Part shown: positions 6,936-48,599 of the stretch, piece after piece | How the letters are laid out: each line of letters starts with the position of its first letter | Numbering within the stretch: position 1 is the first letter of the stretch | DNA from: Chiloscyllium plagiosum | Lineage: Eukaryota | Length of the DNA: 49,430 nucleotides | Reading direction: 5' to 3' | NCBI RefSeq assembly: GCF_004010195.1 | Contig: NC_057718.1 | Span: 45,919,240 to 45,968,669, forward strand | Notes under the pieces: model-generated | Databases searched by the model: none | What the model saw: only the letters and a program-made list of their open reading frames with translations | What the model was told of the DNA's origin: nothing | Made by a program: the position numbers and the translations under genes

Positions 6936-8142
6936 TTCATATGTCATGGGTGACTACCAGACAGAATAAAAGCACAAGGCAGGTAGTGCAGCATTCACCT
7001 TGGGCCATCTCCCTCTCAAACAGATTATTTTTGGAGTTGAGAGAGTAAGGGGTTCAATGGATGTAGTGAAGAAAAAACTTACATCTCGTATAACAGTACA
7101 GCATAATGAAATAAGTGAGAAGAGTCCTTAACCAAGATCATTGACATGAGATTTAGAGACTAAGTGAGCAAAGAGTGTCAGCTTCTTTCATTCAGACTGC
7201 TTCCATTTCTACAAAGATAGATAGAAAAGATGATTCATAGAAGTCATGAAAGATGATTTTGGGCAAGAAACCAGAAGGAATGGTTTCTGAATGCTCTGCT
7301 TCTTTTCAGTTCAGTTGCTTCTGCCAGCTGTAATATTAAATCAAAAAAGAGTAGGAATCAGAGATAAAGCTGGTTGTGATGCCAGGTGCAATAGGCTGAA
7401 TTCTTATGAGAAAAATCTGAACAGAGGCATGATTGAACCCAAACACAACAAAGGAAAGATAAAGTAAGAAACCTTTGATGCCAGCTAACTTTCTATCAGT
7501 TATTTTGCTGGCATATTTGGAAGGATCAGAAGAGCACAAACTGTATTTGGTTGATGAAGAATAAAATAATTCCATAGCTAACTCAAGAGTCTTGATTTTG
7601 CATAACATTCCTGCCTGCATAGAGCATTGCTGGGCATAAGCATAGAACAAAAAACTGGCTGCAGCAGTGTTTTGCAATCCAGGCTACGTTGCTGTGCATG
7701 CAAGTTTCATTTTACCTTCACACTTTAATAAGACGAGGCCATGCAAAATTATGTAAATTAACGGTAATTATGGGACTAGCAAATTTTAAATTCTGTCATC
7801 TGATTGCTGTACCCAAGATCTTTCATAGACTAAAATGAATTTTACAAAGGAAAATCGTGGACCTAAAATGGCTGCAGTAGTCACCTGATCACAGATTCAG
7901 GCACAGATTCGGGAACTTGTGCAATAAATGAGCTATCTTTCCTGAAATTATCATTTTTATTTAAAAACATCAAAGTCAGGCAGCTGAGTCAGCACCAAGA
8001 AATTCAGATCTATTTATTGAGAGGTGAAGGGCCTACCATCCAATTAGCTAGATTGAAAGGCAATTGAGTTAGACTCTAGAACATACACTGAACTATATTT
8101 CAACAGCTGCTTTTGAAGTGCACAGCAGAGAGAAGCGAAAAT

Positions 8143-8326
8143 CAAAGTTTGTGAGAAGATTTGTAGCTCGGGTGCTCATTGTTGTGGTTCTGTTCACCGA
8201 GCTGGGAATTTGTGTTGCAGACGTTTCATCCCCTGTGTAGGTGACATCCTCAGTGCTTAGGAGCCTCCTGTGAAGCGCTTCTGTGATGTTTCCTCCGGCA
8301 TTTATAGTGGTTTGTCTCTGCCACTT
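8143..8326 (-). mobile_element. PLE family B 3' terminus including tail
   Basis: Reverse complement of ~45130-45315. Confidence 0.88.
8217..8258 (-). ncRNA. Minimal hammerhead motif (PLE family B)
   Basis: Minus strand AAGCA-CTGAGGA-T-GTCACCT ACAC AGGGGAT-GAAAC-GTC-TGC; GCA/TGC helix I. Confidence 0.65.
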
Positions 8327-8589
8327 ACACTTGAGCTGGACTTGGCCATCATTTGCTGATGAGGAATTTCATAGAAAATCCCTGAACAACTAGTTGTTCA
8401 ATTGTTCGCCACTATGTGTTTCATGGAGGCGCTGATGTGATGGCACTGATAGTAAACAATTTGTTTGTACTGAAATGTGATATAATCTTGCAATAATTTG
8501 ATAACGTGAAAAGTGTTGATCTACCATCCAGGAGAGTGATGTCTTCAGGTTGTCGAGTGAATAACTGAAGAATACTGGTGAGAAAGTGA

Positions 8590-9322
8590 AGAGGTAAATG
8601 AGGGTAGGACTTAAACAGTTAATGGTATGGCCTTGGGGAGTATAGTCGAACAGAGGGACCTAGCGGTGCAGGTTCATAGTTTCTTGAAAGTGGCGTTGCA
8701 TGTAGACAAGGTGGTGAAGAAAGTGTTTGACATGTTTGTCTTTATTGGTCAGAACATTGAGTATGGGAGTTGGGGCGTCACATTACAGGTGTACAGGACA
8801 TTGGTTTGGCCACTTTTAGAATACTGTGTACAATTCTGATCGTCCTGCTATACGATTGATATTGTTAAACTCAAAAGGATACAGAAAACAATTTACAAGA
8901 ATGTTGCCATTCTTGAGGGTTTGACTTATATGGAGAGGCTGGATGGGCTGGGACATTTTTCCCTGAAGCATCAGAGGCTGAGGCCCAATAGAGGTTTACA
9001 AAATTATGGTGGGCATAGATAAGGTGAATAGCCAAGGCCTTTTTCCAAGGGTAGGGGAGTTGAAAACTAGAGGGCAGAGGTTTAAGGTGAGAGGGGAAAG
9101 ATTTAAAAGGGACCTATGAAGCAACCTTTTCACAGTGAGGGTGCATGGAATGAGCTGCCAGAGGAAGTGGGTACAATTACAATGTTTAGAAGACATTTGG
9201 ATATGTACATGAATAGGAAAGGTTTGAAGGGATATGGGCCAAATGCAGGCAAAGGGACTAGTTAAGTTCAGCAATCCTGGTTGGCATGAATAAGTTGGAT
9301 AGTCTATTTCTGTGCTGTATGA
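8590..9322 (+). mobile_element. CR1 LINE 3' fragment inside the PLE-bracketed cargo
   Basis: ORF 8627-8839 EQRDLAVQVHS...YRTLVWPLLEYCVQF; the 3' UTR resembles 300-660. Confidence 0.9.
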
Positions 9323-10901
9323 GACGCCGAGTTTTATCAGGGATTTGTCTTCAATTTAAAACTGCATTACAATTTCTCTTTCCTATCAGACATACATCAG
9401 ATGTGCACAATCTTAACTCAATTCTCAGAAGTTCTCCAAGCACAGAACTGAATAATTCACTTAACTGGTAGATAATCTAGTCGTTTACTGACTATGAATA
9501 ATATCACAATGATGCGGTGGTTTCGATACTCTACACATGTCACAGGTGACGAAGTATCTTATTAAGAAAAAGGATGTTTGCATTAGAAAAATTCCTGAGG
9601 ACGTGGCTTTCAAGGGTGTGTCCCACTGCAGGATATTCGAAAATATATCATGCCTGTGACAGAAAATTACAACATTTTGAGCCTGACTGCTAACAAGCTG
9701 ACCTCCAACTCTCCAATAATCCTGTCGGAAACTTCTCTTGACATCAAACAACATTCTGACCATTCGCTGAGAAGGCATAAGATTTACAAATATTTGTTTA
9801 GATTAGAGTCATAATCCAGGCTTCAGAGTAACTCTTGAATACATAAAACTCACAGATGTTGTTATCTGTTGTTGCCCAACTTGTCCTATAAATAGAGCAT
9901 ACTCTGCAATAAGGAAACAGTTCTGGAATACATATGATGTTTGAGCTAATGTACAGAGGTCACCTATTCTGTATCTAAAGCACCTGTAGACATTGATATT
10001 AAAGTGAAGGAGATTGGAAATAGGACAGGATCACTTGATCTAATAAATGCATTTCTCAATCCAACCTCTCCACAGTGCTCTCTCTCCTTTCTGTCTGAAT
10101 TAACAGACTCTTTGGGGAGGAAAGTTTATGTTGCATAATTAAAACATTGTAAAACAATTTCCACTTCACTAAAGCTCTGTATAGTGCAAGTTGGCACTCA
10201 GAGTATCTGTGGAATTCAGCACTTAGATTGCTTATAGAAGACAGCACTATACTACTTGGGTTTGTTACTGCAAGGCTTATAACAATAACACAGTGTCAGT
10301 CTTTTTAAATCAGTCAGAGAGTCTCTTGAACTGAGCACATTTTAGAGGCTTATGTTGAGTTGATTTAAATGTTTAGGACATGGGAGAATTGTACACTTGA
10401 TCTCCAACACTAAAATTTTGATGACTAGGATAGAACTCTTGCAGAAGGGACAAATCACAACTGATTGGAATTCCAATTGGAGATAAAAAAATTAAATCAG
10501 AAACTGTCTGGAATGGAACAATATCAGATGAGTTGCTATAGTATAAATGAACTGTTGAATTGATCATCTTAGCAATAGAATTTTTCAAAAATATAGAATT
10601 GCATGGAGAATTATAGAATGACACAGTCACATCATTGTTATAGTACAGAAAGAAACCACTTGGCCTGTTGTTTTTGCAAATAAGCAACACACCTGATGCC
10701 CATCCCATGCCTTCTCCCTGTAACTCTGCACTTTCTTTTTTTAGATCATAATTCAAATCCCCTATGAATGCCTCAATCAAAACTACCTCCAAAACAGGCT
10801 CAGGCAGTGCATTCCAAACTTTAATGCCTTGCTGCATGAAAACGTTTGTTAATTTCATTTCCCACTTTTCTCTAAAATCTTTTGGAAGTAATTCTGATCA
10901 A

Positions 10902-11193
10902 TGTTGTGGTTCTGTTCGCCGAACTGGGAATTTGTGTTGCAGATGTTTCGTCCCCTGTCTAGGTGACATCCTCAGTGCTTGGGAGCCTCCTGTGAAGCGC
11001 TTCTGTGATGTTTGTGATGTTTTTTATAGTGGTTTGTCTCTGCCGCTTCCGGTTGTCAGTTCCAGCTGTCCGTTGCAGTGGTTGGTATATTGGGTATATT
11101 GGGTTGGTATATGTGCTTCTTGATTGAATCTGTGGATGAGTGCCATGCCTCTAGGAATTCCCTGGCTGTTCTCTGTTTAGCTTGTCCTATAAT
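10902..11193 (-). mobile_element. PLE family B fragment (end of GIY-YIG region + terminal repeat lacking tail), with HHR motif
   Basis: Similar to 44347-44632; same orientation as 8143-8326. Confidence 0.88.
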
Positions 11194-12339
11194 AGAAGCG
11201 AAAATGTATTTGTGTCAACAAGACCTGGAACTCTCTCCCTTTCTCTACCTATCACTCTCCCTGTCTTTCTGATTATCTCAAACAATAGTAAAGAAATAAT
11301 CAACTATGGTCCTCACTTTTAAAATCAAACATCTCAGGACCCAAGAACTCATAAATTGCAAAGCTTTGTTTCCACCTCTCTGTATCACTCTTAAGTCTTA
11401 ATCTACCACCTATGTTTGATATCACTTTTAAAAATTTTCCTTGGTATTAAAAGATAATAAAATTCTTATTTCTTTCACAGAAGGAAATCATGTTAATTGG
11501 CTCTTTCACTTTCTCATGAACCGTGTTTAAATTGAAGTGTGAAAGCTGCATTCTTAAAATATATTTTTTAAAAGTATTGCGACAGACCATAAGGAGTTTT
11601 GAAAGGATGGTGGTGGGTGCTATAATTTGTTCTCCTCATCTGACCAGTATTTAAATATTTTAAGCTGCAGACCACAGCAAGTGACAGTCAGTCCTATCTA
11701 TGGTAACATGTCCTAATAACTGCATCACCAACTTCCCACACCAGCTCAATTCACACAGCTCTTTTACCTACCAACGATCTCCATCAATCAGGACTCAGAC
11801 CTAATGCTTATATACTTCAGTACACACTCACACACTTAGCACTTTTGTATATGCCTCAGATCCTCATCATATATTTTGTACACACTGCCAGCTACACCAT
11901 GAGAGCTACCTCAGCCAAAAACATTGAACTACACTCATCAACTTGTTTCCTCCCCATCGTGGAAAATGTGGCACAAAGCTGGAGAAGCAAAAGCAAAGCC
12001 AGAACGGGAAAGATGTACCTGCATGTCCTTATATCTATTGAGGAAGCAATATTGTTTGCCTATTTTTCTCAGTCACTCAATGGAGATGTTGATTCTTGTA
12101 GAGGTCTGGTACCATCGGTAATAGCAGTACAGTGTTTGAATTTCAGATCTACATTGAAATAGTACTACACTGAACAGTACCTTCATTCATTAGAAAAGAC
12201 AATCTGTTAAAAAGAATCTTGTATCCGTATGTATATAACATTTTTGCATTTTAAGATCCGATAGCTACCTTTGAAATGGTACCAGAAATTTGGAACGTCA
12301 GTTGAGTTGGGGGGATAAAAAAAGTTCTTTAGAACACAG

Positions 12340-16735: not shown

Positions 16736-16990
16736 AATGGAAGCCTTATATGAGACAGAAAAGAGATGGAGTGGTTTAGAGAACTTAGTCATGGGGAGAG
16801 GGAAATTCTGATCTGTGAAACGGGTTTAAGTATTTAGTGGACATCATGATGACTGCTGCTTCCTATCTCCTAGATTTGGAGGAAGGCTGGGCGTACTTGA
16901 TCTCTGGATGATTTTCCTTCTTTCACCTTTTGACCATTTTTTCTTGTGGCTGTCAGTTGAAACCTGGCAGTAGAGCCCAGTACACAAGAG

Positions 16991-17413
16991 GAGAAAGTGA
17001 GGACTGCAGATGCTGGAGATCAGAGCTGAAAATGTGTTGCTGGAAAAGCGCAGCAGGTCAGGCAGCATCCAAGGAGCAGGAGAATCGACGTTTCGGGCAT
17101 AAGCCTCACTGATTTCAAGGTAGGCACTTCTGGTTTTGCAGTATGCAACATACCACAATAGATTTGCATCCTTTGGATGAGTCATACTTTAATACTTCTC
17201 TATGACACTGAAATTGTTGCTTGAAAAGAATGTTCATTTGCTCTGTAATGAATTGCATTGCTTTGTGTGCTTGATTGTACTTGCATTCTGCTGACACCTG
17301 TGGGTTCTGCAATGATTCTTCATTCCTGAAGAAGGGCTTATGCCCGAAACGTCGATTCTCCTGCTCCTTGGATGCTGCCTGACCTGCTGCGCTTTTCCAG
17401 CAACACATTTTCA
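16991..17413. mobile_element. PLE family A inverted termini enclosing a 212-bp inverted copy of 18232-18443
   Basis: TSD CCCAGT(A/G)CACAAGAG at 16976-16990 and 17415-17429; the overlapping parts of the arms are identical; intact HHR core at 17326-17353. Confidence 0.92.
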
Positions 17414-18231
17414 TCCCAGTGCACAAGAGAAAAGTGACGAGTTCTACCATTAGAATGAGATGGTATTGTGGGATCTTCTCATTCTCCAGCAAACTCCATT
17501 CTTCTCTTTCAAGCTCTATTGTTTAATTTTCCACACTTCAGACCTGTCAGAATTCTCTCATCTATCAAGAGCCAATGATACATATGTAATGAGCTTCACT
17601 GCAGGTAAATGGGATGTGGAATGTATAAAATGGAGAACAGAACTCCTGCCCCATCAGACATGCAGCACAAGGAAAAAAATCCCCTTTTTAAATATTATGT
17701 CTGACCTGTCAAAGAACAATGTCTATGGATGTTCAGACATTTGTGGGAGATAATGATATGAGTGTGACTTTAACTGCATTTCTTATGGCTGTGAAAGTGA
17801 TAGCAGTCATTAATTTTCTCAATCTTATTCACTTCAATCCCCAAATGATTCTTTGCATTGGCAATGGCCACTAGCAATGATTAAATGCCCGATACCTCAT
17901 TCTAGAAACCCTATCCTTTTAGAACAAAGTGACAAGAAACAGCAACAATCCAATGCTCTTGCTGGCTTCCCCACTGTTTTGCCAAATATATGCATGTACA
18001 GATCGTTACTGATCATCAAATTAATGGTGCATATCATCTATGCAAGCTTTCATTCCTTAATTTGCAGGTGATCTGTGCTAAAAAAAAATAACTTTGTGGC
18101 GAAGGCAGGGTCAACTCTGACTGCTTCATCCTTACCAGTTTAGTGCGCTTGGATGCTTAAATGGGCTACTTGGTTGCAAGGCTGTCTTTAGGGAAATTAT
18201 TACTATGGTTCGCAACCATGACTCATAACCC

Positions 18232-18443
18232 CATTGCAGAACCCACAGGTGTCAGCAGAATGCAAGTACAATCAAGCACACAAAGCAATGCAATTCATTA
18301 CAGAGCAAATGAACATTCTTTTCAAGCAACAATTTCAGTGTCATAGAGAAGTATTAAAGTATGACTCATCCAAAGGATGCAAATCTATTGTGGTATGTTG
18401 CATAGTGCAAAACCAGAAGTGCCTACCTTGAAATCAGTGAGGC
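18232..18443 (+). repeat. Donor of the inverted copy at 17103-17314
   Basis: One mismatch seen in 212 bp; the ORF track shows the near-identical peptide on opposite strands. Confidence 0.95.
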
Positions 18444-25250: not shown

Positions 25251-26827
25251 CATCACTGTCACCATTCCCTTAGTAATCCATTGCAATGAACCCCATGCCC
25301 AGTCTTAATTTTCCCACTTCTATCTGGAATCCACTTCTGTGCCCTGACTATTACTAAGCAAACCTCCAGAACTGTCTCGACAGAACAGCCACGATTAACC
25401 ACAGCCCTTTGCCAGACTAATGTCCCAATAGCACCTCAACAGACCTGTAATATTGAATATTGCTGAGTATCGCACGGTTAACCCACTTGGTTTAAAATTT
25501 AAACAAAGTCTGGCAATTAGCTGTCAATTGTCATTGATTATTGCATATCCTTTGGCTAAACTTCTACCAATCAGAATCCACATTTGCAAACCAATCTTGG
25601 TTAGTTTCTATGAAATGAATGTTGGTTTCCTCTTGAATTGGTATTCCTGTAAATTCTCCTGATGAGTGCAAGGTGAACAATTTTCACAAAATGTGTATTT
25701 TTTCAGCATAATTCAAGTTCTGTATTACCACTTGACTATTTATATATCTTTGAATTGGTTGCGCTTGACCTGCAGAACTGACTGTGGCCCAAATCCCAAA
25801 TTGCAAGTATACAGATCCCCAGACTCTGGGAATGCTTGACTGATAGCGGCCAGCCATTGCATTGGCATTAGATGAGCCACTTGACTGAAAGTTATTGTAT
25901 TCCCTGATTGACCATAGTCTCCCTTCAACCCTACAAATAAATCCTCCCTTTCAACTTTCAGTCATGGTCACTTGCTTCAAGCAAATATTTGCCAAGTTAA
26001 CTACTGGCCCATAATGCAGATATGATGTTAATGCAGTAAGATGCCAGACAGTGACATGTGTATCCTGTGAACTGTTCAATATTCTCCAACTTAACAAGCA
26101 GCCTGCCTCTCCCTCTTCTCCAAAAAAGTAACATAAATCACAGATACTGACAGCTTGTAACAGAGCACTGAAGACCCTGTGCTCTAAGAAAGCAATGTGA
26201 GCCACGCAGAGGTGGGCACCTGGTAAGTCAGTGCTGAATTCAGTGAGAGTGCACTCAGAAAGCAATGTGAGGTATACAGAGGCTGAGAGGCTCCAAGTAA
26301 ACATGATGTGAGTCATAACATGCAGATGCATGAGATGCATGTGTATCTCTCTTCATGTAAGATCATCTGCAGAAGCATGTAACTGATAGGTGTTGCAGAG
26401 CAACAAAGGGAATGAAGAAGGGTTATGCGAGTTGAATTTGGGGCAGACATGATGATGTCGTGAAGCTGGCGGTTTGCTGATGTGTCGGTGCAGATTTGCG
26501 TGAATGAACTGTCCAGCAGAAAGGTATCCATGGACCATGCAGGGATGTAGTTGTAAAGAAGCACTTGGATGATAACCAAGTTTACCCAGTTTACCCAGCT
26601 ACTCCATCACTGTATTCCTGCATGCTCCACAAGTACCAGTCTCTTCCACCTTCATGTACATAAGAGAAATTATCAAACTGGCAGCCTCAGAATATCACCC
26701 CAGTGCTTTTGGACCAACTCTCACATCACAGCAGCCCCCTTACAGACCTTACTTCAGAGCTTACAGTCAGTTAGGCCTTGCATGCTTCTACCTTGTGTTT
26801 TTGCACACGTGGACACAAATGTATGTT

Positions 26828-26911
26828 GAAAATGTGTTGCTGGAAAAGCGCAGCAGGTCAGGCAGCATCCAAGGAACAGGAGAATCGACGTTTCGGGCAT
26901 AAGCCCTGTGA
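26828..26911 (-). mobile_element. Solo 84-bp PLE family A fragment
   Basis: 13-bp TSD ACAAATGTATGTT at 26815-26827 and 26912-26924. Confidence 0.92.
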
Positions 26912-28849
26912 ACAAATGTATGTTCACAGGATGACGCATATGTCTTCTAGCTTGCTTTCTTAGAGTTGGCATTTACTATGTGGCTGGTGGCATTTTGCAG
27001 CTTGCATTTCTGTTCAGTGCAAGCTGGCAGCTTATAGCAGTTGCAAGTCCTGAACAGTCAAGAGGCTGGATATGTTTCTGTATGCATGGTGCTATCTCAG
27101 TGTTACACTTACAACACATACCAGCAGCTTCCACAACCATCACACTGCATGTGCTTCAACCAAATGTCCATGTCTGAAAGTCAAAGTCCTTCTGGAGTCG
27201 AGGGGGACTATGTCATTTGAGGATTGCTACCATGCTCAGTGCAGGGGCTCATCCTATCTCAATCCAATGGGTTTGCCACAGTCAGGCATATCATTGGTCT
27301 TACTAGAGTTCAGAAGTCAATGCCTTTGAAGACCAGGAACTGGGTAATGGTCAGTTCTGTAGGTCTAGTGCAACTAGTTCATGGATCACAGGAATGTCAG
27401 GTGGGCGCTATGGTGACATCCATCTGAGGCTACATCATGTGCGGTCAGGACTGTTCTCCCAGGTCAGTCCAGGAGCTGGGCCAAGATCAGTCCTGTGGGT
27501 CAAGGTATTAATGGTCACAGGGTGCATCAGGAGGTCTCCATACACTCCTGTGGAAAACGAGGTGCTCAAGTTGGGTGTTTGGCTCATTGAACTGGGTTAT
27601 TGAGGGAATTATAATGGTCATAGGGACAATTCCAGAGAGAAGGGTGGAGTCTCATAGTGCACAGGAGGGAACTTTTAAACAGTTTTCAATCAACCTAGCC
27701 TCCATATGAGGAGAATGAATAGCCAACAAATACATGGCCATTTGCAAAGGCATTAAAAGTATTATAAAGGGGCTGAATGGAAAGGGGAGGAGGCTCAAAG
27801 TGACTAAAAGTGACATAGGGCTGTAACACAACAGAAAATGTGAAGGTTGGGGAGATCATTAATTGTCTCTCACAGGGACACAAAATTCAACCAGAGCATA
27901 ACCTCTGTTCTCCATTTTGAATATAGCCCTTTAATCGTAACTATGCCATCATCGCATCAAAGTTAGCTACCCAGAAAAAGAGACAAAGTAGCTGCTGCTG
28001 CATGTAGAGTAAGTGGAGTAAGTCTTTCTCTTCAGTAGTGTAGTATGATGATTGTGTGTGAGTCACTGTGTGGGGCAATTGTATGAATCATGCATCCACT
28101 GGTTCAGTAACGCCACCCGTCTGCCATTAAATTGGATTCAATTGAAAAGTCATTCTTTCGGCAACTATAGACATTGCAAATTGAGACCTCAAGCAATCAA
28201 TATCATGAAATACTTTGCATTAATTAGCCCTGCCATCATGTCAGATAGACAATGCTATGCAGAAGCACACTTTACCACTTCACCCGACTTTACCATTTCT
28301 GCATTGATTTTCTTATCAGACATCGGAAAACCATGCTTTGGAACTGCAACATTTCACACCAAACTGCATGTATGTGACATTCATGGGTGATTTTTGTTCT
28401 TGGGTGGAGACGCAGTCACAGCAGAGAAGTGCTTGCATTTAACTCACCCAATGTAGCGTTTGTAATTTGGTTCAGCAACATTTATCTGCATTGGGTTTCA
28501 GAGCTCAGAGTTTCAAATCAAGGCATGGCATCAGCCTCCTTGTAAAGATAAAGCCTCCATGTCACAATGTGTGAGTCCATAAGATGTTGTTTAATTGTGC
28601 TTGATGTTAGGAATCTGGAAAAGTCCAGCTGACATGCTGTTCTGTTTCTGACATCTTCCACAGATTATCTGCTCCCTGAATTGAGATGAAACCAGCTCTC
28701 AGAAGTTACTTTGTGGCTTTGTTAACTATGAGATTCCAGCATTAAAGAAGACTTCAATTGGAAGACCAGCAACAAGAGGAGCCTCCAGAGGCTGTCATAC
28801 TGGATGGAGAGAGACAGCTGAAGATCAACCAAGAGGAAGATGAGAGTGA

Positions 28850-44160: not shown

Positions 44161-44346
44161 TTGTTTTCCAAGAAGAAATGCATGTAAAAATAACTGTTTG
44201 TGATCCTTAGAGGAGGGTGAATTTACAATATAATGCGTTATGCAGAGTATTGAAATTTTTAAATTAATTTATTTTGAAATTTTGGTTATGCATATTAATT
44301 CTTAATGTTAGAGGGAGAGAAGGAAATCTGTTAATTGTATATTAAT

Positions 44347-45315
44347 TGTTGTAGTTCTGTTCGCCGAGCTGGGAATTTGTGTTGCAGACATTTTGTCCCC
44401 TGTCTAGGTGACATCTTCAGTGCTTGTGACCCTCCTGTGAAGCGCCTCTGTGATCTTTCCTCCGGCATTTGTAGTCGTTTGAATCTGCCGCTTCCGGTTG
44501 TCAGTTTCAGCTGTCCGTTGCAGTGGTTGATATATTGGGTCTAGGTCAATGTGCATATTGATTGAATCTGTGGATGAGTGTCATGCCTCTAGGAATTCCC
44601 TGGCTGTTCTCTGTTTGGCTTGTCCTATAATAGTAGTGTTGTCCCAGTCGAATTCATGTTGCTTGTCGTCTGTGTGTGTGGCTACTAAGGATAGCTGGTC
44701 GTGTCGTTCATGGCTAGTTGGTGTTCATGGATGCAGATCGTTAGCTGTCTTCCTGTTTGTCCTATGTAGTGTTTTGTACAGTCCTTGCATGGGATTTTGT
44801 ACACTACATTTTGTTCAATGTAGTGTACAAAATCCCATGCAAGGACTGTACAAAACACTACATAGGACAAACAGGAAGACAGCTAACGATCCGCATCCAT
44901 GAACACCAACTAGCCACGAACGACACTTCCAGCTATCCTTAGTAACCACACACACAGATGACAAGCAACATGAATTCGACTGGGACAACACTACTATTAT
45001 AGGACAAGCCAAACAGAGAACAGCCAGGGAATTCCTAGAGGCCTGGAACTCATCCACAGATTCAATCAATAAGCATGTCGATCTGGACCCGATATACCGA
45101 CACTGCAACTGACAGCTGGAACTGACAACTGGAAGCGGCAGATTCAAACCACTATAAATGCCGGAGGAAACATCACAGAAGCACTTCACAGGAGGCTTCC
45201 AAGCACTGAGGATGTCACCTAGACAGGGGACAAAATGTCTGCAACACAAATTCCCAGCTCGGCGAACAGAACCACAACAACGAGCACCCGAGCTACAAAT
45301 CTTCTCACAAACTTT
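44347..45315. mobile_element. PLE family B fold-back (palindromic) insertion encoding a GIY-YIG endonuclease fragment
   Basis: NVVYKIPCKDCTKHYIGQTGR GIY-YIG motif on both strands; arms 44347-44810 and 44817-45280; TSD TATTAATTGT at 44340-44349 and 45319-45328. Confidence 0.93.
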
Positions 45316-45793
45316 TTTTATTAATTGTACCATAGTGGTGGGTATTAACTGGGGATTCACTCAGGTCCCCATAAATAGGTACAGATTAAACTGTGATGGT
45401 TGGGGTTAGGAGATCTGTGCTTGTAATTTTAAGTCTAGAAGACAAAAGTAAACACTTGTATAGATTAGTTCCAATTGTGTCCTTCACACATATCAACTTT
45501 CTATAGAAACATAGATAATAGGAGCTGGAGTAGGCCATTCAGTCCTTCGAGCCTGTGTTGCCATTCAATATGTTCATGGTTGATCATCCAACTCAATACC
45601 CTGTTCCTGCTTTCTCTCTGTACCATTTAGTCTCTAAAAAACATAGCTAACTCCTTCTTGAAAACATTCAATGTTTTGGCCTCCATTGCTTTCTGTAGCA
45701 GAGAATTACATAGGCTCATCATTCTCTGGATGAAGAAATGTATTTGCATCTCATACCTAAGTGGCCTAGCCTGTATCCTTAGGCTCTGGTTTT

Positions 45794-45929: not shown

Positions 45930-47020
45930 CTTTAGGCTCTTGTTCCGAGTCCGGACTCACTGGTCATTGAGAACATCCTTCTTCCATTTTCTCTGTCCGG
46001 TTCTGTTAGAATTTTATAAATTGAACTCCAGTGAATATCATCCGAAATGATCCAATTTCTTTTTAGACATCCTCTGACCATCCCAGGAATCAGTCTGGTG
46101 ACTTTGTTGCATTCCCTCCAAAGTCAGAACATCCTGATTCAAATAAGGAGACCGACCTGCACACAATACTCCAAGTCTGATCCCACCAAGGCCCTGCACA
46201 ATTCCAGCAAGACATCCCTGCTCCTATTCTTGAATCTTCTCACTATGAAGGCCAACATGCCTTTCGCTTTCATTACCACTTGCTGAATCTGCACACTTGG
46301 CTTCAGTGACTGGTGTATAAGGACACCCAGGTCTCATGGTACTTCTCCCTTTCCTAATCTATCGGCATGCAGATAATAATCTTTCTTCCTGTTTTTTATA
46401 TACCAAAGCAGATAACCTCACATTTATCGGCCATGTTTTGCTCATTCAATTGACTTGTCCACACTATACTGAAGTATCTCTGCATCCTCCTCAGTTCACT
46501 CTCCACCCTGCTTTGTGTTGTCTGCAAACTTGAAGATATTATGTTTACTCACCTCATCTAAATCTTTAATAGAGAACATGAATAGTTGGGGTCCAAGCAC
46601 TGATCCCTGCACTACCCCACTAGTCACTGCCTGCCATTTTGAAAAAGACCTGTTTATTTGTATTTCGTTGTTTCTTGTCTGCCAGCCACTTCTGTATTCA
46701 AGTCAGAGTGCTACCTGATTCCATGCACTTTAACCTTACAAGCTAATATCCTATATGGAACCTTATCAAAAGACTTCTGAGTAAACCACATCCACGAGCT
46801 CCTCCTTGACAATTCTACTAGTTATAGCCTCAAAAAATGCCAGTAGATTCATCAAGCACAATTTGCTTTTTGTAAATCCATGCTGACTCTGTCTGATCCT
46901 GCCATTGTTTTCCAAGTGTTTTTCTATTAGTTTATTTATAATAGACTGTAGTATTTCAGTTTCTATCAGTTAGGATATCAGTTTCTATGCTGTCTTATTT
47001 TCTGTCTAACTCCTTTTTTT

Positions 47021-47307
47021 CAAAGTCAGAAATCACACAACACCAGCTTATAGCCCAACAGGTTTATTTGAAATCACAGGTTTTTGGAGCACTGCCAAGG
47101 GAGAAGTACCATGAGACCTGGGTGTCCTTATACACCAGTCACTGAAGCCAAGTGTGCAGATTCAGCAAGTGGTAATGAAAGCGAAAGGCATGTTGGCCTT
47201 CATAGTGAGAAGATTCAAGAATAGGAGCAGGGATGTCTTGCTGGAATTGTGCAGCACTGTGACTTCCGACTTTGCCCACCCCAGTCCAACACAGGAACTT
47301 CCACATC
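47021..47307. mobile_element. PLE family C inverted termini enclosing a 158-bp inverted copy of 46194-46351
   Basis: Left arm CAAAGTCAGAAATCACA... versus right arm TGTGACTTCCGACTTTG + tail; TSD TCC(T6-7)CAAA at 47011-47024 and 47306-47318. Confidence 0.82.
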
Positions 47308-48599
47308 CTTTTTTCAAATAGTGGGGTTATGTTAGGTTCCCTCCAGTCTATATAAACTGTTCCAGAGTCTTTAGAATCTTGAAAGATAGCCATCAATGCA
47401 TCCACTATTGCTAGGCCCATGTTTTTGTTGCCACTCCTGGAATAGAAATTGGGAACTTATAGCTGATGAGACAGCACTTGACTGGTCTTTTATGAGATCC
47501 AGCCAGATCCAGTGGTGGAAAGCTAAACCAGTTGTCCAATATATCCTTTCAAATCTAAACTTAAGGGAATACAGATGAGGGTAATAGAAGAGGGAATCAG
47601 TGAGGGTAAAAGAGAATATTACTGAGGATGTACAGATCTAATGTAGAAGAGGGTGTGGCTGAACAAATCTGTAGCTGCAGAAATGCTGTGGCAAATGGCA
47701 GAGGGAAAGATCAGTAAAAGAAAACTGCAGTAATCATTGGAGATAAATGTATTGGTCATGCTGGAGCTCCACTTCGAAACACCAAAAATAGGTCAGGCCA
47801 GTGTGTATCATTCACAAGTTTTACTGGATTTTTCCATTCTTGGACAGGATGAAAGGATACACAATTAGGATTGGACAGTGCAGTTTTGTGTGAACTGGTA
47901 GATAGCTTTTCCTTAGAGCGGATGTAGAGGAGGTTGTGTTGGAAATTGAAAGGGATGGAGGGAAAAGCGATAAAAGAACCGGATCAGAGATGGGTTATGT
48001 ATGATTGATGCCATGGGATTTGTGTATTGAGGTGGTAAAATTCAGGTTAACGACAGATTTCAGATTCGTTTCATTCATATCAGCGACAGAAATGATTCGC
48101 AGCATCAGTTTTAGCACTGTGCAGTATTCCATTAGCAATAAAGCTCATGAACCTACTCCCATTCATAACCAATCCCTGCATTATCAAATACAACTGTTTT
48201 TTGCAATGCAACTTAAAATTTGACTGCCAAGCCCACAGAATATGAATTTACTTTACAGATGTAAGTGTGATATTTTAACAAAGGCTTTTCCAAAATCAAT
48301 CTATGCTGTGAAGTGCAGCAGACCTAGACTTGCATCAGTAAGTCAGATTTTTATTCAATGGTGCTCTGCAGAGTTGAATATCCCAGAGTGTTTTGTGTCT
48401 GTCCATTTGATTACCCAGTGGAAGACCTCCAGGGCAAATTTTATGTAAGCCTGGAATAATCCGCTGTAGTTTTTCAAAAATTAGATTTAGCTTTTGAGAA
48501 GCTTGGTCTTGGATAAAATTTGCAACAGGCCTGTAAGAGAAACTGATGAAGAGAAAGATAAAAGTCAGACTGTTGCGGGGATATATACTTGTCTTTTTG

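Follow-up and report, generated by a model that had tools for sequence, protein, structure and literature searches.

Two direct Penelope-like ends within one 12-nt repeat probably record a single insertion that enclosed DNA from elsewhere in Chiloscyllium plagiosum

In a 49,430-nt stretch of the Chiloscyllium plagiosum genome (contig NC_057718.1, positions 45,919,240 to 45,968,669; hereafter the window), two pieces of a Penelope-like retroelement in direct orientation, referred to here as arm 1 and arm 2, enclose other genomic DNA (the cargo), and a single exact 12-nt repeat flanks the whole composite at 8131-11205. Our analysis makes it probable that one event enclosed DNA from elsewhere. In the tentatively favored route, host DNA was copied through template switching in the course of one Penelope integration and the donor was later lost; we put this at somewhat short of an even chance. 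The features of the composite are the following:

8131..8142, plus strand: left copy of the target-site repeat, 12 nt; contigs of the element family begin at 8143
8143..8326, minus strand: arm 1, a Penelope-like 3′ end with a tail of about 35 nt at left; 92.6% identity to 45126-45315; right end likely cut by a deletion
8224..8253, minus strand: minimal hammerhead core pattern in arm 1, by pattern match
8325..8327, no strand: secondary junction of arm 1 and cargo with 2 shared letters; absent from the contigs of four public runs
8327..10899, no strand: enclosed genomic DNA, a remnant; no coding signal in our tests and single copy per run over 9363-10570
8629..9322, plus strand: 3′ fragment resembling a long interspersed element (LINE), from a very high copy family, as judged by 70-77% identity to other LINE-like copies and by contig depth
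10597..10871, minus strand: older LINE-like fragment at the right end of the cargo, by sequence comparison
10900..11195 (left edge 10895-10902), minus strand: arm 2, a tail-less, 5′-truncated piece of the same family, by sequence comparison and contigs
10946..10975, minus strand: minimal hammerhead core pattern in arm 2, by pattern match
11194..11205, plus strand: right copy of the 12-nt repeat, whose first two letters, AG, fit the element too (microhomology)

Much of the evidence comes from public assemblies. We aligned the contigs of four of 21 listed public runs, from three organisms, to 7400-11900 at ≥90% identity. Run X15 represents organism A, which has the best-matching species label and is the window's own species, and comes from a study other than that of the top-ranking runs; X7 and X11 represent organism B in two studies, and X14 represents organism C. 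The contig listing comprises 32 piece rows, 15 of 504 joints, 40 of 223 variant places, and 24 of 3,278 family-end rows. Between 85 and 100% of each run was read, with a filter that removes some records. We note that contigs indicate presence and not absence, and regions without contig cover (e.g., 7906-8061 in X15 and X11) were not counted as evidence.

The 12-mer AGAAGCGAAAAT is present at 8131-8142 and 11194-11205 and at no other place in the window on either strand. Among the family-end rows listed, loose ends of family contigs fall at 8143 (126-190 records, three of the four runs), such that the left repeat abuts the end of the tail exactly, and family contigs diverge from the window after 11195 (47-60 records, all four runs). 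Because 8143 and 11195 are the limits of the family contigs, the repeat fits both element ends exactly, with a 2-nt microhomology at the sealing end: the letters AG are common to the element and the right repeat, and the remaining 10 letters are purely flank. The composite has a short target-site duplication (TSD), 12 nt in length and exact at both ends, and arm 2 has no flanking repeat of its own on its left side. Exact repeats of at least 12 nt were found at 2 of 20,000 random point pairs 0.3-3.5 kb apart in the window when ±3 slack was allowed and at 1 of 300,000 pairs when the ends were pinned. Flanking repeats of 9-15 nt are present at nine of the 11 spans that we examined for similar insertions in the window.

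Arms 1 and 2 belong to the same repeat family and lie in the same orientation, with their 3′ ends at left. The other two family copies in the window form the arms of a fold-back (44346-44810 and 44817-45315), and every family piece in the window is at most 500 nt long. The copy at 44817 reads GIY-YIG-like on the plus strand, as 32 aa from 44817-44912 match this Pfam domain with an E value of 0.01 and 16.6 bits, below the curated cut-off of 22.6; both arms of the composite are therefore assigned to the minus strand. A 52-aa frame from arm 2 had no Pfam match. Only the left arm carries a tail of 30-40 nt. Relative to arm 1, arm 2 is missing the initial 30-37 nt, so that its start lies within the tailed end; the tail-less arm of the fold-back (44346-45315), at 44346, starts in the same way and lacks 36-40 nt of that end. 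In the anole Poseidon element, two adjacent internal start sites for reverse transcription define the tail, and AT-rich DNA is nicked (PMC11167929). The pairing of a tailed with a tail-less arm matches these two starts, supporting one event.

An earlier note on this DNA, made from the letters alone, had proposed that a single insertion moved kilobases of genomic DNA, on the grounds that one 12-nt repeat flanks two pieces of the same orientation, of which only the first is tailed. These observations all hold: the repeat occurs nowhere else in the window and meets both family-defined ends, and both arms are on the minus strand with the tail portion lacking from arm 2. The single insertion event is well supported by the exact repeat at both element ends, the absence of a repeat proper to arm 2, and the tail/tail-less pairing.

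The divergence of the arms is compatible with this. Excluding a replaced 9-nt patch, they differ at 7 of 138 sites (5.1%), which is within the 7% between the arms of the one-event fold-back and below four between-event pairs in our comparison (5.8-12.3%). A 2-letter variant is common to arms 1 and 2 and absent from the fold-back, a weak indication given that there are four copies only. Two patches in arm 2 (approximately 11014-11022 and 11096-11110) have been replaced by copies of neighboring letters, as from slippage in synthesis or repair. The fold-back itself, at 44340-45328, combines a tail-less and a tailed arm that differ at 31 of 463 sites within a 10-nt flanking repeat. A hammerhead core is a known mark of Penelope-like termini (PMC4209133). 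In arms 1 and 2 the core pattern lies in register. Taken by itself, the bare pattern matches the window 11 times, versus 6 by chance. The predicted folding was no better than that of shuffled sequences, with z-scores of approximately 0, and Rfam yielded no match in the window at gathering scores.

The outer junctions are shared with related organisms. The passage from the left flank into arm 1 is crossed by contigs of B and C (records 25 and 9, 24-25 letters in), that from the cargo into arm 2 by contigs of A and B (records 21, 28, and 5, 18-30 letters in), and that from arm 2 into the right flank by contigs of A, B, and C (records 23, 30, and 15, 22-30 letters in). Each of these contigs continues in the correct register. 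The arrangement that would have refuted the earlier note, orthologous loci that hold 8327-10901 but no element, was not found: the cargo of B enters arm 2, and arm 2 enters the right flank in both B and C. Divergence of the orthologous pieces from the window amounts to 2.5-4.4% for B, 3.0-5.6% for C, and 0.1-0.3% for X15, and the cargo equals the flanks in this respect. The presence of the outer junctions in B and C, some 3-4% diverged, together with the divergence of the arms and of the orthologs, indicates that the insertion is old and that A, B, and C cannot show an empty site. Judged by sequence divergence, it would be about as old as, or slightly older than, the split of the three organisms.

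The inner left junction, at 8326/8327, was seen in the contigs of none of the four runs. Contigs that extend leftward through the cargo run on into other DNA, departing from the window sequence at 8325 in X15 (record 17, with 553 further letters after 1 difference in 356) and in X14 (record 10, 423 further letters), and at 8340 in X7 and X11 (records 27 and 3, 2,681 and 216 further letters). Among the variant places listed, the contig in which the cargo runs on is the main or only contig at 8402-8528. The window haplotype thus likely carries a later deletion with 2-nt microhomology at 8326/8327; misassembly at this point is the less simple reading. If the two halves are linked, the enclosed DNA was likely at least 3.1 kb long originally in A and at least 5.2 kb in B. 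A cargo of 2.6 kb, the size first proposed, is an accurate description of what the window encloses and an underestimate of the original, as the cargo continues for 216-2,681 nt in every run.

The cargo had been described as apparently unique DNA with old CR1 fragments. Searches with blastn and nhmmer found neither a paralog nor a donor of the cargo within the window, in agreement with the first reading, and returned LINE-like matches only, at 8629-9322 and approximately 10597-10871. These LINE-like pieces are presumably CR1, and four frames taken from them had no match in Pfam. Of 17 stop-to-stop frames of at least 45 aa that lie in or overlap the cargo, one gave a sub-threshold Pfam match (ANTH, E 0.098). 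Conservation of the cargo does not exceed that of the flanks in the ortholog comparison. With no coding content and no extra conservation, a function for the cargo is unlikely. No match to an exact 24-nt pattern from the right junction was found in a metagenome collection, and comparison with other surveyed DNA stretches by place, relatives, and sequence yielded no look-alike of the locus.

Over 9363-10570, the depth in all four runs corresponds to a single contig at each position, near the depth of the flanks and without a branch. A donor of the age of the arms is expected to be approximately 95% alike and thus to be recoverable at the 90% threshold. We also considered that the cargo contigs represent a donor and its copy collapsed into one, and we rejected this: the contigs continue unbranched through either end of the cargo, and they have the same depth as the flanks. 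The depth over 10571-10872 is about twice the single-copy value in the runs of B and C, with no such excess in X15, and a similar twofold excess is also found in plain flank (11537, 11775). A partial second copy could lie within 10571-10917. At 10744-10917, an organism B contig (record 5) shows 0 differences from the window over 174 nt, where about 5 would be expected, at approximately double depth; possibly, this contig is a collapsed second copy.

We hypothesize the following course for a template-switching integration. Reverse transcription would start at the target from the tail start, switch to several kilobases of genomic DNA as template, begin anew on the element RNA from the tail-less start, and be sealed to the other target end via the microhomology. 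The donor copy would later have been lost, and a later deletion would have trimmed the left part of the insert in the window haplotype. Copying of host DNA during integration is active in the window, as two young insertions show. In each, a segment bounded by element ends and enclosed by a flanking repeat is an inverted copy of DNA 0.75-0.92 kb away: 17103-17314 (212 nt) matches 18232-18443 at 99.5%, and 47097-47254 (158 nt) matches 46194-46351 at 100%. As for the lost donor, approximately 745 nt at 7760-7774 are present in organisms B and C and not in the window or X15 (records 24, 9, and 16); this indel shows that large losses are common at the locus, which makes a later loss of the donor more credible.

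The insertions around the two local copies, and two others in the window, have the following structures. The young insertion at 16976-17429 has inverted element ends that are 100% identical over 79 nt and a 15-nt flanking repeat with 1 mismatch, and its source lies 0.9 kb downstream. The insert at 47013-47318 belongs to a third element family and has a 10-12 nt flanking repeat, a source 0.75 kb upstream, and apparent head and tail pieces. A composite at 1224-2792, within a 14-nt flanking repeat, has inverted arms that are 97.5% alike around an inner 709 nt (1510-2218) for which the window holds no source; the donor may lie upstream of the window start. At 26785-26954, a short element piece with an 11-nt flanking repeat is bordered on both sides by fillers of 35-39 nt that share a 13-nt word, and no other source for the fillers was found in the window.

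Several observations weigh against a copying event with later donor loss. The paralogous donor for which the earlier note had suggested a search was not seen: at ≥90% identity, the four runs, which represent three organisms, contained no full donor over 9363-10570. With arms that differ by 5.1% and orthologs by 2.5-5.6%, the insertion seems only slightly older than the A/B/C split, leaving little time for donor loss. The local captures in the window measure 158-212 nt, and the enclosed DNA here would be 3-5 kb or more. The original junction of arm 1 and cargo, where a template switch would leave its mark, is gone from the window, and in the other genomes the two halves are not connected by any contig. 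The contigs that cross junctions enter the arms by 18-30 letters, which is below the 31-letter mark for a bridge; such short overlaps are expected because contigs break on entering a high-copy repeat. The empty site, which had been anticipated in relatives, does not appear among the 15 joints listed of 504, and organisms B and C instead carry the insertion at both outer junctions. The proposal that a single insertion transported kilobases of DNA thus stands as to the one event; the donor was not seen, the relatives carry the insertion, and its size had been understated.

The strongest competitor is that the DNA was moved and not copied, with a nearby fragment or circle joined at the target and the insertion and the donor loss fixed as one haplotype. 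We consider this unlikely, if still a serious contender, and it comes in several variants: the moved DNA may be an excised fragment or a circle with its own tail-less copy, and the joining may involve concurrent priming resolved crosswise or recombination into a resident copy. A move explains the single-copy cargo without a separate donor loss, and the cargo/arm 2 junction resembles a natural priming site, the tail-less start. Direct arms with an outer repeat are also what it predicts, as in the integration of an SVA-SVA circle described for lcr16a (PMC9132208), but this documented circle case is a duplication and not a move. Crosswise resolution of concurrent L1 insertions is documented in tumors (10.1101/2024.08.27.596794). 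A move here needs three breaks or recombination over just 150-300 nt. An unlinked move would be expected to end as a duplication in the population, so the donor would have to be close. The arms are also slightly more alike than independent copies, a weak point against a move. A fuller version, in which a Penelope-like element moved at least 5 kb of host DNA in the germline, with priming at both reverse transcription starts stitching in an excised fragment or circle and leaving no donor, is likewise one that we doubt. Improbable, in our view, is a read-through RNA, in which a donor with two element copies kilobases apart was reverse-transcribed from the downstream tail into the upstream copy and later lost. 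A read-through model acting in trans has been proposed for cases in Adineta vaga, and the layout here resembles those rotifer cases, with an upstream tail-less repeat, host DNA, a downstream tailed repeat, and a TSD (PMC3846280). The approximately twofold depth over 10571-10872 in B and C, and the double-depth contig of B (record 5), could be a partial second copy, but the excess recurs in plain flank at 11537 and 11775 and is lacking in X15. A read-through donor must vanish too, and a cDNA of 3-5 kb or more must stop by chance inside a 300-nt arm.

A scenario without any transport, in which two separate insertions flank resident DNA and the 12-nt match is a coincidence, seems to us more improbable than any of these routes. 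It accommodates the single-copy cargo and a between-organism divergence equal to that of the flanks, but the match itself has a chance of 1 in 300,000 to 1 in 10,000 per pair, and the left side of arm 2 bears no repeat from an insertion of its own. For one of seven LINE-like copies in the window, there was a weak alignment to the right flank, oriented as though the old fragment carried on beyond arm 2 (a score reached by 7 of 200 block shuffles). This hint was not borne out by the other six copies or by two profiles, nor by a joined test, in which 143 of the 300 random pieces and 162 of the 300 shuffles scored equally well. Continuity of an old repeat across arm 2 would speak for resident DNA, and continuity across the virtual empty site for an insertion; with the in-window LINE-like copies, the results for both were negative or equivocal. 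Assembly error and other unlisted routes are very unlikely. Two further candidates were rejected: an insertion at random within a single element that duplicated 154 nt, because the start of arm 2 coincides with the tail-less site of the family, and an element-bridged inversion, because the repeats would end inverted.

Under the template-switching reading that we tentatively prefer, as under a move, the locus would be an old capture fossil, with direct arms, a kilobase size, and an age beyond the split of three related organisms. Its value is mechanistic, since the missing donor and the tail/tail-less pairing make it a locus at which copying and moving are separable. If a move were true, Penelope-like retroelements would be able to rearrange a vertebrate genome locally in cut-and-paste fashion, and retroelement-bridged rearrangement, known for L1 in tumors, would have a counterpart that is fixed in the germline and due to another class of element.

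The closest known system is that of Adineta vaga, where an intron-bearing non-ribosomal peptide synthetase (NRPS) gene and non-coding DNA are framed by direct Penelope repeats inside a TSD, with the empty allele as proof and with Pen1 spacers of 0.9-1.5 kb (Arkhipova, Yushenova, Rodriguez 2013, PMC3846280). The locus described here shares the two direct terminal pieces, the element-free host DNA between them, and the short outer TSD. It differs in its vertebrate-type genome, its non-coding cargo, the lack of an additional inverted repeat, the fact that neither an empty allele nor a cargo paralog was seen, and its secondary inner left junction. The locus belongs to the A. vaga type of capture by anatomy only, as a paralogous source was not found in the four runs at ≥90% identity. 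The literature that we searched, made up mostly of papers outside subscription, contained no report from sharks or other vertebrates of such a Penelope capture of host DNA. We regard the locus as one more example of an already described type of capture, and its sole surprising point is the donor-less state.

Similar arrangements are known from other retroelements. In cultured cells, L1 insertions include templated genomic insertions and same-orientation concatenates that were read as template switching (PMC11702581). The composite is like these in being a TSD-flanked retro-insertion with extra genomic DNA and same-orientation pieces; in the cases given there, the donor is near the site, whereas the present event is germline and old and its donor was not seen. 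The lcr16a SVA case (PMC9132208) shares the direct retroelement arms and the single outer TSD around a host segment; in that case the arms are chimeric, a further TSD pair lies at the inner boundaries, and the donor is retained, whereas the inner left junction is deleted here. Finally, the composite resembles anole Poseidon (Frangieh et al. 2024, PMC11167929) in the 30-40 nt tail of one arm, the tail-less site of the other, and the hammerhead core near the end. Capture of host DNA does not feature in that paper, whereas in the composite the two starts lie at the two ends of a host segment.

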